Source: Octopus vulgaris (taxonomy: Eukaryota). From it: a stretch of 64,000 nucleotides of DNA. The notes beneath the pieces are model-generated. The model made no database searches and was not told the DNA's origin. It saw nothing but the letters and a program-made list of their open reading frames with translations. The stretch spans positions 38,564,001 through 38,628,000 of the forward strand of contig OX597837.1 of NCBI GenBank assembly GCA_951406725.2. Direction: 5' to 3'. Positions 26,497 to 54,920 of this stretch are shown here, piece after piece. The translations under genes and the position numbers were made by a program. Within the stretch, counting starts at the first letter, position 1. The number at the start of each line of letters is the position of its first letter.

Positions 26497-26535
<39 letters not shown>

Positions 26536-26634
26536 TTATATACATATATATATATACACAGATGTGTATTATTTTTTTTACAAGAATAATGTTGACAATG
26601 ACTTCGAAGTTTCGGCCTTCTTAGGCTTCATCGG

Positions 26635-27591
26635 TGAAGTTGGAAAGAAAGTCCTGCTTCATTTCAAGACGAGGGACAAACAAAAGCTTTTTGAGTTTTA
26701 ATCGATATATTTGTCCGAGATAATATTTCCCCTCGTTATCAATAACATAATCTCATATACATGGAATAATCGTTAATCCTTCAGGCGTAAAAATTCTCCA
26801 GGTTTCGAACCCAATAAACACTTAATACCATTTTTAGTCGCTTCAGGGTCAATAAACTAAATAATGTTGCAATGATCTGAAAAGATGAGAATCAGTTGGA
26901 ACAAGATCAGAACAGAAAAGAAAATCAGGCAAAACTTTCATATTTAGTGCCATAATGTTTTTCTCAGTGACTGTGGAGGCACATGGCCTAGTGGTTAGAG
27001 CAGCGGACTCGCAGTCGTGGGATCGCGGGTTCGAATCTCAGCCCGGTCGATGTGTGTGTTTATGAGCTAAATGCCTAAACTCTACGCGGCTCCGGCAGAA
27101 GGTAATGGCGAACTTCTGCTGACTCTTTTGCCACAACTTCCTCTCACTCTTTCCTCCTGCATTTTGCAGCTCACCTGCGACGGGCCGGCGTCCCGTTCAG
27201 GTGGGAAACCTATACGCCACGGAAACCGGAAAACCTGCCCTTATGAGCCAGGCATGGCTCGAGAAGGAACAAACAACATTTCTCAATGACTTGAGCAAAA
27301 TGGAATCTTGCGTTATCGTCTAAGAGCAACGACATTTGCTTTTTCTGGACATTTTTGTGCAATGCATCTAACTGTCGGTAATACTTTCTCGTTTTGCTTC
27401 AACATTTAATGGCACAGACGACTGTTATTATTTTTTTTTTAGTCCTGCTTTAAATATGGTTTCTGTATCTTCATTGAATGCTAACCGTTTTCGTTTCTGT
27501 TGGATATGTTTATAGAGAACACACGTTTAATCGCGAGAGATGATTCTACCCAGGAAAGATTCGGTAGCAAGTCTACCCTTCAATGACAAAC
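26635..27591 (-). pseudogene. Decayed DD34D mariner transposase catalytic domain plus 3' TIR, split by a SINE
   Basis: Minus strand ESFLGRIISRD*TCVLY (first D), LLLDDNARFHFAQV (HDNARPH), VLPDFLFCSDLVPTDSHLFRSLQHYL (YSPDLAPSD), VIDNEGKYY (C-terminus); TIR-like T.AAGTTGGAAAGAAAGTCCTGC at 26635-26660. Confidence 0.88.
26973..27278 (+). mobile_element. SINE family B with 13-bp target-site duplication
   Basis: TTTCTCAGTGACT (26960-26972) and TTTCTCAATGACT (27279-27291) flank it. Confidence 0.92.
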
Positions 27592-28014
27592 AAATATATA
27601 TATATATATATACATTTATATACATATACATGTGTATGTGTGTATACATATATACACACTCACGTATGTCTCTCTCTCTCTCTCTTCTTTCCCTCGGTTT
27701 GTTATTGAAGGGTAGACTTGCTACCGAATCTTTCCTGGGTAGAATCATCTCTCGCGATTAAACGTGTGTTCTCAAAACAACATCCAACGGAAACGAAAAC
27801 GGTTAGCATTCAATGAAGATACAGAAACCATATATATATATATATATATCGACTAAAACTCAAAAAACTTTTGTTGCTTTCTCGTCTTGAAATGAGGCAG
27901 GACTTTCTTTCCAACTTAACCGATGAAGGCTAAGAAGGCCGAAACTTCGAAATCACTGTCAACATTATCCTTGTAAAAAAAATAATACACATCTGTGTAT
28001 ATACATGTAAATAA

Positions 28015-28264
<250 letters not shown>

Positions 28265-28343
28265 TGTGCTTGTGTGTCTATCTTTATGCTTCTGTATACA
28301 TTTTCATGTATCCCTGCATTTGTACGTACGTATATGTGTATAT

Positions 28344-28593
28344 GTGGAGGCGCGTGGCTTAGTGGTTTGAGTGTTGAACTCATGATCGTAAGGTTGTGGT
28401 TTCGATTCCTGGACCGGGCGATGCGTTGTGTTCCTGAGCAAAACACTTCATTTCCACGTTGCTCCAGTCCACCCAGGTAGCAAAAAATGAGTAATTCTTC
28501 GACGGACCGATGTCCCGTCCAGGTGGGGAATTTCTACGCCATTGAAACCGGGAAACCAGCCCTTATGAGCCTGGCATGGCTCGAGAAGGAACA
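28344..28593 (+). mobile_element. tRNA-derived SINE with CORE-like body and family-B tail
   Basis: GTGGAGGCGCGTGGCTTAGTGG...GGTTTCGATTCC...CCTGAGCAAAACACTT...; tail GGCATGGCTCGAGAAGGAAC shared with the 26973 copy. Confidence 0.85.
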
Positions 28594-28637
28594 TTTATAT
28601 GTGTATACAAATATGCACGTATTTGGGTACATGGATA

Positions 28638-28696
<59 letters not shown>

Positions 28697-28999
28697 TGGG
28701 TGGCGGAAACCCATTGTCGATACTTGAGGTTATATCCGAAAGAGATTAAACTGAGAATGAAGGCTACGTAGACTTTCTTTAAATACTTTCTCTGGTTGAT
28801 TAGGGGCTTTTATGATCAAAATGCGGTTTGAATTGAACTATTTTGCTAATTCCCGTGCATATTTGCTTTGGATATTCCTCATCTGCAATTTTCAGGAACC
28901 TATCGGTCGTTCCTCATCGAGAGTAATCTGCAAGAGAAAAATATCCCGAACGAAACTGGACAAACCTATCGTCAGCATGACTGCAGACTTTAATTGAAA

Positions 29000-29592
29000 T
29001 GACTACTCAAAATAGTATTTTTCCTGAAACCCGAGTGACTTTTTGGTCAGATGAAAGCAGTTTTCGTGCAAACATTCAGACACGCGTCTCCTACCCAAAT
29101 CTTCAGTGATGATGGACTGAACTGAACCGTAACTAATCTGTACATCCTTTGATAACTCACGGATGGTGATTCGACGATTTCCCTTCACAGCTGCATACAC
29201 ATCTGCAATGTTTTTCTAAGTTCTTTTGTTGGCGGGTCTCCCAGAGCGTTCATCAATATCGACATTTTTTCGGCCATCGTGGAAACGTCTGAACCCCACG
29301 TACACTTGTGTGCGGCTCATACACTCCTCTCCATACACTTTCTGCACTTTGCGCAGGCCTCTGAACGGGTATCGTTTTGACAACTTTCTCTGTGATGGTC
29401 AATGCGACTACCACACGCTACACCCGTTCCTTCCAAGCACTGCTACAAACAGAGGAAGTGATCTAGAACGTTAAAACTTAGTGTGCATGTACAGCAGAGG
29501 TTAAGGTCAATCTTTATCAAGTGGCTTGACTCTGCCTGCTTTAGCTTCGTTACTATGGCAACACTCCGGACACTTATTGACTAGACCTCGTA
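29000..29592 (-). pseudogene. Mariner transposase N-terminal (HTH) fragment with 5' TIR
   Basis: KVYGEECMSRTQVYVGFRRFHDGRKNVDIDERSGRP...VKGNRRITIRELSKDVQISYGSVQSIITEDLGRRRVS; TIR TACGAGGTCTAGTCAATAAGTGTCCGGAGT at 29563-29592. Confidence 0.88.
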
Positions 29593-30313
29593 TGTACCTT
29601 GTTTTGAAACATTTGCCATAACTTTGTCATTTGGTATTGTCGACATTATTGAGTTAGCAGAATCTTTATTACCTAAGGTGGGCGGTAGGAGTATTCATCT
29701 GCATACCGAGTAACACCTTTTTCACTTTCCCTAAAGATAGATTTAATGATATAAATAAAAAATTTGCTTTCGTAAAAAATTATTTTGATGGTTTGTTTAT
29801 GATTTAACTCCCAGAACATTTACTAAGTTTCTTCAAATTCATGCCTTTATATGATTTGTAAGATCTCTCGGTCATTTCGACGAATAAGTCAATTCAAACT
29901 TTGTTCCATTTGTTACAATCTTATCAACAAAATAGTGAGTTCCTAGTTCGCCAATCGCTGCGCCATCCTAACCTCCCATGTTCAATTCGAAAAGCTATTT
30001 GCTGAAGTTATCAAATGCAAAAAAGATTTCTCGAATGCATTACTGTACACATCTGAGATTAAATGATGGCGATGAAGCATTCTTCAAAGTACAAAGCATT
30101 TATTAGAAAGTTCATTTTCTTATGATCCTGCAGAAATCTAAATTGTCAAATTGTACAAGTTAAAATGTCTGCGTATGTTTTTTTTTAGGCCAATGAAAAT
30201 CCATCATCCCATTGGCTGCGTTTCCGTAATCCAATTTTGGGAGCCACCATGTCGATATGTACATACTACACACAGACACAGACACACTCAAATATACTCA
30301 CAGGTATTCACAA

Positions 30314-31214: not shown

Positions 31215-31259
<45 letters not shown>

Positions 31260-31362
31260 TGTGTGTGTATGTGTGTGTGTGTGCTTCTGTGCCTGTATCT
31301 ACTATGTTTAATGTATACTTACTTACGTGTATCCCTACATTCGTACGTACGTATATAGGTGC

Positions 31363-31394
<32 letters not shown>

Positions 31395-31605
31395 GCAGGT
31401 ATAAGGTACATGTGTGTGTGTGTGTGTGTGTGTGTTCGTGTGTGATAAAAACCCATCGTCGATACTTGAGGCTATATCCGAAAGAGATACATTATTCACG
31501 GCGTGACACGTTCTCGAATTGTTCCCTTAACACGTTCTCATCACTGGTGAAACGCACACGTCACCACAGCACACCCACATACAACACACGCACACACGCT
31601 CATAA

Positions 31606-52762: not shown

Positions 52763-53118
52763 ACTTATAAACAAGGGCAAAAGAAAATTTTTTTCTATGC
52801 CAATATGCTGATAACAGACTTTAAATCGACAATTTCCACATTTCATTATACATTCACTATAAATACACGCTGTACTGAAATCGAGGGAAGCTAGCCAACA
52901 GATTTTGTTTGTTTTTTAAAGTTCGTTATTTCTATATTGAATCAATTTTGGGATGAATCCTATGCATTCTTCCCTCTTCGGTAGAATCGAATTCCTCGAT
53001 TTCAGCACAACGCATATTTATAGTGAATCTATAATGAACTGTGGAAATTGACGATTTAAAGTCTGTTGTCAGCATATTGGCATAGAAATAATTTTTCTTT
53101 TGCCCTTGTGTATACGTT
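52762..53118. repeat. Inverted repeat with about 125-bp arms and about 105-bp spacer, next to (TA)n
   Basis: 52762-52886 pairs with 52994-53118 (ACAAGGGCAAAAGAAAATT...GAAATCGAGG / CCTCGATTTC...TTTTGCCCTTGT). Confidence 0.9.
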
Positions 53119-53203
53119 CTTTATAATTTTAACCTTTAAAGGTATTTTAATATGCTACCACTTTTGATGAAATATTTTCTGAAAAAACTTTTATCCTGTA
53201 TTA

Positions 53204-53245
<42 letters not shown>

Positions 53246-53262
53246 GCATGCATGTGTATATA

Positions 53263-53504
53263 TATTGGGTTGGTGCATAATTACTGCGGCTCTTTTTCAA
53301 CAAATTTTATTCAACAAAAACAATAACTGCATGTAACTAACACATCTTTAAATGATTATTCCGGGGCATATTCACCATCTACTTCAATTACAGCTTCCCA
53401 TTTTCTTGGCAGACAGTCAGACCATCATTTAAAGAGGTTTTCCTTAAATATCTTTATTGTTTTTGTTGAATAAAATTTGTTGAAAAAAGTGTCAAAAATT
53501 ATGC

Positions 53505-53511
<7 letters not shown>
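53263..53511 (-). mobile_element. Mariner-derived MITE
   Basis: TIR TATTGGGTTGGTGCATAATTA.TGCGG; internal transposase C-terminus remnant; TA flanks. Confidence 0.88.
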
Positions 53512-53577
<66 letters not shown>

Positions 53578-53602
53578 AATATATATATACATATATATAT
53601 AT

Positions 53603-53655
<53 letters not shown>

Positions 53656-53814
53656 TGGTGAGTGGATGCATGTATGATTGTGACCGAATTCTATTAAGTA
53701 CGTTTAAGCTGCTGTTTTGTGTATTAATAACGGAAGTACGCTTGCAAATGTGTGTGATTGTATATATCGCCATGATAGTTCGTTAGCCACTACACACATT
53801 TTTTTCTGTTTCTT

Positions 53815-53844
<30 letters not shown>

Positions 53845-53845
<1 letters not shown>

Positions 53846-54087
53846 TGGTAAAAACGGTAAGATAACAAAAGAAAGAAAGAGACCTCAATATTATGTAAAT
53901 AGAGGAAATTTATCTCTAAAATAATAATTATTATTTTAGACAATTATTGTGACAATTGTTCGGTAGCCAAGATAAAACTCTGAGATGGCCAGATAACCGA
54001 AGAGATGGTGTTGTGGATTTCTACCTCGGCATCCGAAACTCGGAGTTTTATCTTGGCTACCGAATAATTGTCACATATTATATTTAC

Positions 54088-54090
<3 letters not shown>
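53845..54090. mobile_element. Family J fold-back mini-element
   Basis: Inverted arms 53948-53984 and 54039-54075; (TA)n on both sides. Confidence 0.85.
53991..54053 (+). ncRNA. Type I hammerhead ribozyme motif (U4C variant)
   Basis: Stem I AGATAA/TTATCT, core CCGAAGA, stem II GATG...CATC(C), GAAA, stem III ACTC-G-GAGT, triplet GTT. Confidence 0.7.
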
Positions 54091-54124
<34 letters not shown>

Positions 54125-54440
54125 GAGAGAGAGAGGGAGAGAGAGGAGAGTCATACATATATACATATGCTAATATATGTAATATAATGGGAGGGTGTAT
54201 AGATAGAAAAATAGATAGATAGATAGATTGACTGATTAATTGATTTATTGATTGATTCATTCATTTATCGATTGATTGGTGTATATGTACGATATCTGCG
54301 AGGTCACGTGTGCGAGTACGAAGCTAGAAACTACACATGCATTAGCGCCTGTTACGTAGTGAACAACGTAGATACGTGTTATTATAAGTACATTCTCGCG
54401 TTGGAATCACAGATCGAAAGACATTTGTGCAGCGTGTCTG

Positions 54441-54507
<67 letters not shown>

Positions 54508-54537
54508 TATATACACACACACATACATACATATATA

Positions 54538-54791
54538 TATTGGATTTGTGCATAATTATTGCGACTTTCTTCAACAAATTTTATTCAACAAAAACAATAA
54601 AGATATTTAACGAAAACATCTTTAAATGATGGTCTGACTGTCTGCCAAGCAAATGGGAAGCAGTAATTGAAGTAGATGGTGAATATGCTCCGGAATAATC
54701 ATTTAAAGATGTTTTTGTTACATGTTGTTATTGTTTTTGCTGAATAAAATTTGTTGAAAAAGAGCCGCAATAATTATGCACCAACCCAATA
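54538..54791 (+). mobile_element. Mariner-derived MITE (inverse copy of 53263-53511)
   Basis: LPSKWEAVIEVDGEYAPE* remnant; TIR ...GCCGCAATAATTATGCACCAACCCAATA. Confidence 0.9.
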
Positions 54792-54920
54792 TATATACAC
54801 ATACATGCAGTTATATATATATATATATATACTAATACAGGATAAAAATTTTTTCAGAAAAAATTTCATCAAAAATGGTAGCATATTAAAATACCTTTAA
54901 AGGTTAAACAACTTATACAC

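Follow-up and report, generated by a model that had tools for sequence, protein, structure and literature searches.

A broken mariner transposon and an adjoining fragment of a hammerhead repeat appear to have undergone a one-off local inverted duplication, likely through template switching by a DNA polymerase, a reading to which we assign a probability of roughly 0.65. The duplication lies in the window, by which we mean the whole 64-kb stretch of DNA analysed here, at G000:C24:38564001-38628000; this stretch is rich in microsatellites around the locus and belongs to a genome of 2.8 Gb. The structure is not a new mobile element, and we regard it as largely an ordinary rearrangement among dead repeats. 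A first-pass annotation of the letters alone had predicted the order arm, 3' TIR, SINE-split transposase, microsatellite, inverted copies and arm, and this left-to-right anatomy is borne out in the assembly (Table 1). The extent it gave, 26553..28002, was too narrow, as the rearrangement spans ~26500 to 28746. No function is expected of the locus, because the transposase is broken and each of the two hammerheads is without one strand of helix I.

The inverted arms were compared in several segments. Identity is 91% between the outer arms (26500-26710 and 27844-28054) and 94.8% over 134 nt between the inner arms (27451-27586 and 27703-27836); it is 90.5% over 74 nt for the inverted mariner 3' ends and 94.9% over 78 nt for the hammerhead arms with their flank. 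Chance alone would by no means be expected to yield arms so long and so similar.

Table 1. Components of the rearranged locus and the nearby source of one of them, in window coordinates
Feature	Position	Strand	Remarks
Compound (TA)n microsatellite on the tail side, carrying diagnostic interruptions	26499..26566	.	Putative far switch point (point 3)
Short-end arm of non-coding Penelope-type hammerhead repeat	26567..26634	-	91% to family consensus over 68 nt
Mariner 3' half (3' TIR without its TA, 3' UTR, catalytic region up to first D)	26635..27591	-	79-82% to 29-copy consensus
SINE-like high-copy insertion	26973..27278	+	13-nt target duplication 26960-26972 / 27279-27291
Third, direct copy of tail-side microsatellite (short templated insertion at break, point 1)	27592..27643	+	21-nt exact match to 26529
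Inverted spacer: 11 mariner nt, (GA)n, start of piece T; point 2	27644..27696	-	12-nt inverted repeat of 28250-28261 at its start
Inverted copy of first-D region	27697..27836	+	Carries in-frame stop of left copy; 21 shared, 1 left-only, 5 right-only differences in 130 columns
(TA)n at deletion junction	27830..27850	.	~743 nt of left arm (26711-27453) absent; ATAT at both ends
Inverted mariner 3' end	27844..27919	+	11 shared, 4 left-only, 4 right-only differences in 75 columns
Inverted hammerhead arm (27920-27987) and tail-side microsatellite	27920..28030	+	4 shared, 2 left-only, 2 right-only differences in 68 columns
Piece T, direct copy of ~31255-31488 DNA; starts at point 4	28250..28746	+	SINE later inserted at ~28343-28595
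5' continuation of the same mariner copy	28747..29020 (end approximate)	-	73% to positions 772-997 of the consensus; register of left break kept
Putative source of piece T and inverted spacer	31232..31488	+	Match to spacer and T

Departures from the mariner consensus that are common to both arms were found at 32 of 205 columns, including the stop after the first D. Among the best 40 candidates scored, no other match in the genome exceeds 74% over a 337-nt query from the 3' part, or 77% over 110+ nt of the first-D region. Because the arms share local mutations and the other genomic copies are more distant, the copy was made locally and after the mariner had decayed. The two arms differ from each other at 18 of 273 columns (6.6%), of which 7 are derived on the left and 11 on the right. 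A genome search for further hammerhead-TIR junctions, as suggested in the annotation, returned only the two window sites and one match with 2 mismatches (3 matches for the control), and the deletion junction of the right arm is unique among 35 matches. The copied tract also takes in ~45 nt of flank past the end of the hammerhead element. A spliced, retrocopied RNA was considered as the origin of the 743-nt gap and rejected, since there is no GT-AG at the junction on either strand.

Translation of the minus strand gives mariner-like pieces, and this mariner copy is decayed, with stops, a frameshift and a deletion. The family consensus, built from 29 genomic copies, encodes a 342-aa D34D transposase between TIRs of ~30 nt; its triad is DDD, with 34 residues separating the second and third D, and the window copy itself is broken. 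We take the family to belong to the D34D mariners, with which the consensus shares the WVPHHL motif, the D34D spacing, short TIRs and, in many of its copies, TA flanks; unlike D34D mariners generally, the window copy is broken and split. One relative (L039) matches Pfam Transposase_1 at E 6.5e-05 and 23.2 bits, slightly below the 24-bit cut-off, and a Pfam search of the stretch L048 gave no transposase match, as it falls outside the model. For the SINE-like insertion, ARAGORN reported 0 tRNA genes.

Many family copies have TA flanks, and at the window locus the hammerhead arm occupies the place of the 3' TA. Because the 5' and 3' ends of the family agree over only ~30 nt, the right end is a second 3' end; long family TIRs were rejected as its source on the same ground. 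From 28747 onward the mariner sequence picks up again in the register in which it broke off after 27591, and the segment from 27592 to 28746 is therefore an insert within one old mariner. The description of the locus as a fold-back mariner with two 3' ends thus holds for the second 3' end and fails for a self-contained fold-back unit, because the 5' part continues at 28747. The split mariner's own 5' end was not found in the window. Directly abutting its 5' remnant is the 5' half of a different mariner (29020-29593, minus strand), and a decayed remnant of a Tc1-like transposase is present elsewhere in the window (4182-4796, plus strand).

The hammerhead repeat also occurs on its own, in that genome matches divide cleanly at the junction into arm-only and mariner-only sequences. 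The family consensus has the layout of a minimal type I hammerhead, with helix I of 5 bp, one additional base preceding helix II and a loop 3 that is palindromic. Its core carries C at position 4 in 25 of 34 family copies, a position at which the usual hammerhead core has U. Naming the arms as hammerheads agrees with the layout seen in the family; on the other side, Rfam gave 0 hammerhead matches at the gathering score, and the arms fold no better than shuffled sequences, with no signal in 4 of 4 comparisons. Neither window hammerhead is expected to cleave, because mariner sequence stands in place of the 5' strand of helix I. A minimal hammerhead of such a layout has been described in Penelope-like elements (PMC4209133). 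We regard the repeat as an abundant, non-coding and putatively Penelope-type family, whose putative link to Penelope enzymes comes from the shape of its insertions, because the ~1 kb of element body upstream of the hammerhead contains no ORF.

Among 54 other loci of this family, 20 carry tail-out pairs of arms. The spacer is short (<=23 nt) in 14 family palindromes, 5 of which have exactly ACAGT or ACTGT and none a bare TA; 6 long spacers consist of other repeats or of element body. At none of the 54 loci is a pair of arms separated by inverted host DNA. The annotation had envisaged an empty palindrome with a central TA, to be sought elsewhere in the genome. The TTAA of that supposed empty site comes from the mariner's own ends and removal of the mariner leaves no TA; real empty palindromes are mostly short-spaced, such as AC(A/T)GT, rather than joined by a bare TA.

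Pairs of arms elsewhere follow an end rule, with one short and one long end in 28 of 29 cases, the exception being cut by a SINE. At the window locus both arms are short-end, both end at consensus position 73 with mariner DNA between them, and both run into the same interrupted flanking microsatellite. One of the two is a copy of the other and not its partner in a canonical Penelope-type pair. Only 3-4 departures from the hammerhead consensus are common to both arms, and these were found in 1, 6 and 4 of 34 other copies. Because the shared departures are so few, and each is also present in other copies, hammerhead insertion and duplication may have been simultaneous.

A second hammerhead family keeps to the short/long rule in 3 of 4 pairs (29 loci), which is a small sample. 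A second hammerhead-like family has copies at window positions 26210-26385 (plus strand) and 8110-8247 (minus strand) and many genomic copies at 92-96%; its copy at 26.2 kb shares a (TA)n run with the left arm. At another locus (L004, 1558-2028), about nine 45-nt tandem copies of the 3' half of the first family's hammerhead lie behind an arm.

The remainder of the insert is composed of microsatellite and of DNA from a second local source. The interrupted motif of the tail-side microsatellite occurs in the window only at 26529(+), 27609(+) and 28021(-), and twice in 354 kb of other loci. For the 21-nt match that links the segment at 27592-27643 to 26529, these are the only two places in the window and in 185 kb of other loci. 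The non-repeat part of piece T is identical to its source at 38 of 40 positions, with a pattern that has no further occurrence in the genome (control 0), and piece T joins the mariner at GAAAGAGAT. When the spacer is re-inverted, its match to the source at 31.23 kb rises from 59 to 103, the next best place in the window scoring 61. This spacer carries 11 mariner nucleotides that are absent from the left copy. The inverted copy overlaps the return point by 12 nt, and this 12-nt word occurs 31 times in the window. Every junction lies within a microsatellite or a microhomology; the microhomologies are ATAT, GAAAGAGAT (in part a deduction), the 12-nt overlap and (TA)n, whose weight is lessened by low sequence complexity.

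An artefact of assembly, in which the right arm would derive from a fold-back read or a mis-joined haplotype, is very unlikely. At 27918, all of the contig depth listed in samples X2 and X3 has the left-arm letter, and 27759-27782 is without contig cover in the same two samples. However, the right arm keeps the consensus letter at 7 columns that are changed on the left, and these retained ancestral letters speak against a noisy duplicate of the left arm or a read artefact. Nor is the right arm readily taken for an allele, since the left arms of X2 and X3 differ by only 0-1 letters per 130-330 nt, which makes 6.6% too high. The missing cover also carries less weight than it might, given that contigs drop variants and that both right-arm pieces sit between simple repeats that are skipped. 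The left junction is bridged, with a single difference, by a 336-nt contig of another sample. The contigs listed from two other samples carry only left-arm alleles, and none bridges the centre; those from organism C (X6 and X11) represent other repeat copies only. On the assembly alone, the right arm is real-looking.

Less credible still is a non-autonomous mariner that carried two 3' ends and landed at a TA amid a hammerhead palindrome, and we give this hardly any weight. This proposal, which the annotation put forward as insertion at the palindrome axis, draws on the fact that both arms stop at the same base beside a mariner end and on how common hammerhead palindromes are. Breaks at that base are, however, common in solo arms too, and the two hammerhead arms of the locus are both short-end. 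The mariner's 5' part continues beyond the right arm, the arms share local mutations that include a stop codon, and there is no TA duplication, as no TA lies outside either end of the supposed fold-back unit. The genome searches gave neither a second junction nor a derivative of the deletion, the deletion junction being unique among 35 matches. Opposed 3' ends, or a hammerhead arm, are present at 0 of 31 mariner loci. No family of two-3'-end mariner MITEs and no other copy of the element was found.

We therefore return to the local inverted duplication, and hypothesize that it probably arose from a DNA polymerase that switched templates at TA-rich microsatellites in an event of the 3-1-4-2 type with extra hops. 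The order of events and the path of the strands, like the enzymes, are what we infer from a fit made after the fact. The mariner would have inserted and then decayed, after which a Penelope-type hammerhead repeat would have left a short arm at its 3' end. Approximately 250 nt of local DNA (piece T, from 31.2-31.5 kb) may next have been copied into the mariner at a GA-rich microhomology. Synthesis would then have left its template after 27591 and copied ~50 nt of the left microsatellite before switching to the opposite strand. There it would have begun at the start of T, run back across the mariner and the hammerhead arm as far as (TA)n, and returned 12 nt ahead of the point at which inverted copying had set in. 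About 743 nt may have been skipped, or lost later from the new arm, at ATAT, which would since have grown to (TA)n. The steps from the copying of T onward could have been one single event. The resulting layout of long inverted repeat, inverted spacer and short inverted repeat would correspond to the 3-1-4-2 pattern with an extra hop.

Several observations bear on this mechanism. The inverted copy ends at its own insertion point, a sign that the template at the break was DNA, and because the copied tract ends in (TA)n just past the hammerhead, the hammerhead lies within that tract. A second local template at 31.2-31.5 kb, unrelated to the hammerhead element, was used as well, and comparable local inverted copies without hammerhead bounds occur at L124, L138 and window 53128-54908. 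Each landing point of the proposed path falls in a repeat of TA or GA type; in yeast, AT/TA runs are reported to adopt structures that are cleaved and then mended with Rad51 (PMC12972899). Against template switching, four to six switches are required, along a path that was fitted afterwards and mostly in low-complexity sequence. The four-point events described in PMC5453318 are far shorter, and the 3-1-4-2 type makes up 1% of them. In addition, the outer edge coincides with the hammerhead tail, in a family that often forms inverted pairs (20 of 54 loci).

An alternative is one in which Penelope-type enzymes cut at ~27591 and, at both target ends, used as template a read-through RNA from the neighbouring locus (mariner, hammerhead and tail), or in which insertion of the hammerhead triggered the copying. 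One end would have copied the tail microsatellite only, and the other the tail, the hammerhead and host DNA. We consider this unlikely. It would account for the third copy of the tail microsatellite, which begins exactly at the break and resembles a short inverted arm, and it gains from the fact that hammerhead insertion and duplication are inseparable in time. Precedents include a Penelope protein that cuts and extends both strands in vitro (PMC11167929), unrelated DNA captured between pLTRs in Adineta (PMC3846280) and the inverted truncated copies described as typical of Penelope-like elements (PMC8557442). However, reverse transcription in vitro, as reported in PMC11167929, begins at fixed internal sites of the element, and at the window locus it is the flank past the short end that was copied. 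The locus is without the long-end region and its pair breaks the rule of short plus long ends (28 of 29 elsewhere). An RNA template leaves unexplained both piece T and the ending of the copy at the insertion site, and there is no second case among the 54 other family loci. A related and similarly doubtful possibility is that Penelope machinery was drawn to the resident hammerhead fragment, cut nearby and copied ~1 kb of adjacent host DNA back in inverted orientation in cis; if true, ribozyme repeats could give rise in cis to local inverted duplications, in a genome in which such repeats abound. The annotation's other proposal, transduction by a ribozyme element, was right about local duplication and inversion of flanking DNA, but probably not about the driver. 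The hammerhead element looks like a passenger, because both arms are short-end with the same microsatellite and the insert contains a second, unrelated local source.

Other inverted copies and palindromes were noted in the course of the analysis. A second local inverted duplication in the window (53128-53500 and 54554-54908, 94-96%) takes in a mariner-like MITE, a (TA)n run and the terminal part of a common repeat, and only these two places match its junction among 40 scored candidates. At L124 (G000:C4:76.43 Mb), a 91-nt inverted copy of flank (3450-3540 and 4240-4330, 92%), which is a low-copy repeat, lies inside the body of a family element; this was probably a later templated insertion, because the host element is only 78-81% identical to the consensus. 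At L138 (G000:C8:50.0 Mb), a 259-nt inverted copy (6337-6595 and 7343-7601, 99.6%) runs across two SINE pieces and the intervening DNA, with no hammerhead at its ends. A further candidate for host DNA between arms, at L168, was rejected as element body, since 40 scored matches at 91-100% cover its whole length. Six more palindromes of 120-380 nt and 73-98% identity were observed in the window (8306-8687, 9779-9937, 14017-14138, 52771-53109, 53948-54075 and 56471-56635), and several of them adjoin (TA)n; they probably represent the same Penelope-type footprint left by other families. A survey of 42 stretches at round coordinates (420 kb, with 10 of the stretches near the window) yielded 23 candidates for local duplication, 9 of them inverted, from which no background rate follows because the only candidate tested genome-wide was a false positive.

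As read here, the locus matters little, being a fossil rearrangement among dead repeats. It is nonetheless a well-resolved case, in a genome of the cephalopod type, of kilobase-scale copying with TA-rich microsatellites as possible switch points. It also advises caution, as local inverted copies may mimic new composite elements. If the Penelope-coupled reading were true genome-wide, hammerhead repeats would become a source of local inverted duplications. In the main texts of the literature searched, we found neither a hammerhead-mariner composite nor such a duplication in octopus.

Among known systems, the four-point 3-1-4-2 events of Loytynoja and Goldman (2017, PMC5453318) share with the locus the inverted repeats with spacer, copying of the opposite strand and a return near the start. 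In contrast with those events as they are described there, the tract is ~1 kb and not a short cluster of changes, an extra microsatellite hop and an internal gap fall outside that model, and no ancestral allele was seen. The insertions of MMBIR type (Osia et al. 2021, PMC8421209) and the small inverted triplications (PMC13334657), both reported to occur as germline variants, likewise join several nearby templates, direct and inverted, at microhomologies. Compared with the cases presented in these sources, the locus has longer tracts, junctions in (TA)n and (GA)n and no clean DUP-INV-DUP arrangement, and its junction letters have drifted because the event is old (6.6% between the arms). In Adineta vaga, Penelope elements capture host DNA (PMC3846280) such that non-element DNA similarly lies between element ends; the cargo reported there is inserted elsewhere, with a target duplication, whereas here the copy stays at its source, inverted and without a target duplication. 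The hammerhead family itself resembles Penelope-like elements and their pLTR-only or retrozyme derivatives, as characterized in PMC8557442, PMC4209133, PMC11167929 and bioRxiv 10.64898/2026.07.22.740005, in the minimal type I layout of its consensus, a palindromic loop 3, pairs of inverted and 5'-truncated copies, a longer tail that is optional, and targets of (TA)n type. It differs from Penelope-like elements in that ~1 kb of its body holds no ORF and that C stands at position 4, instead of U, in 25 of 34 copies.
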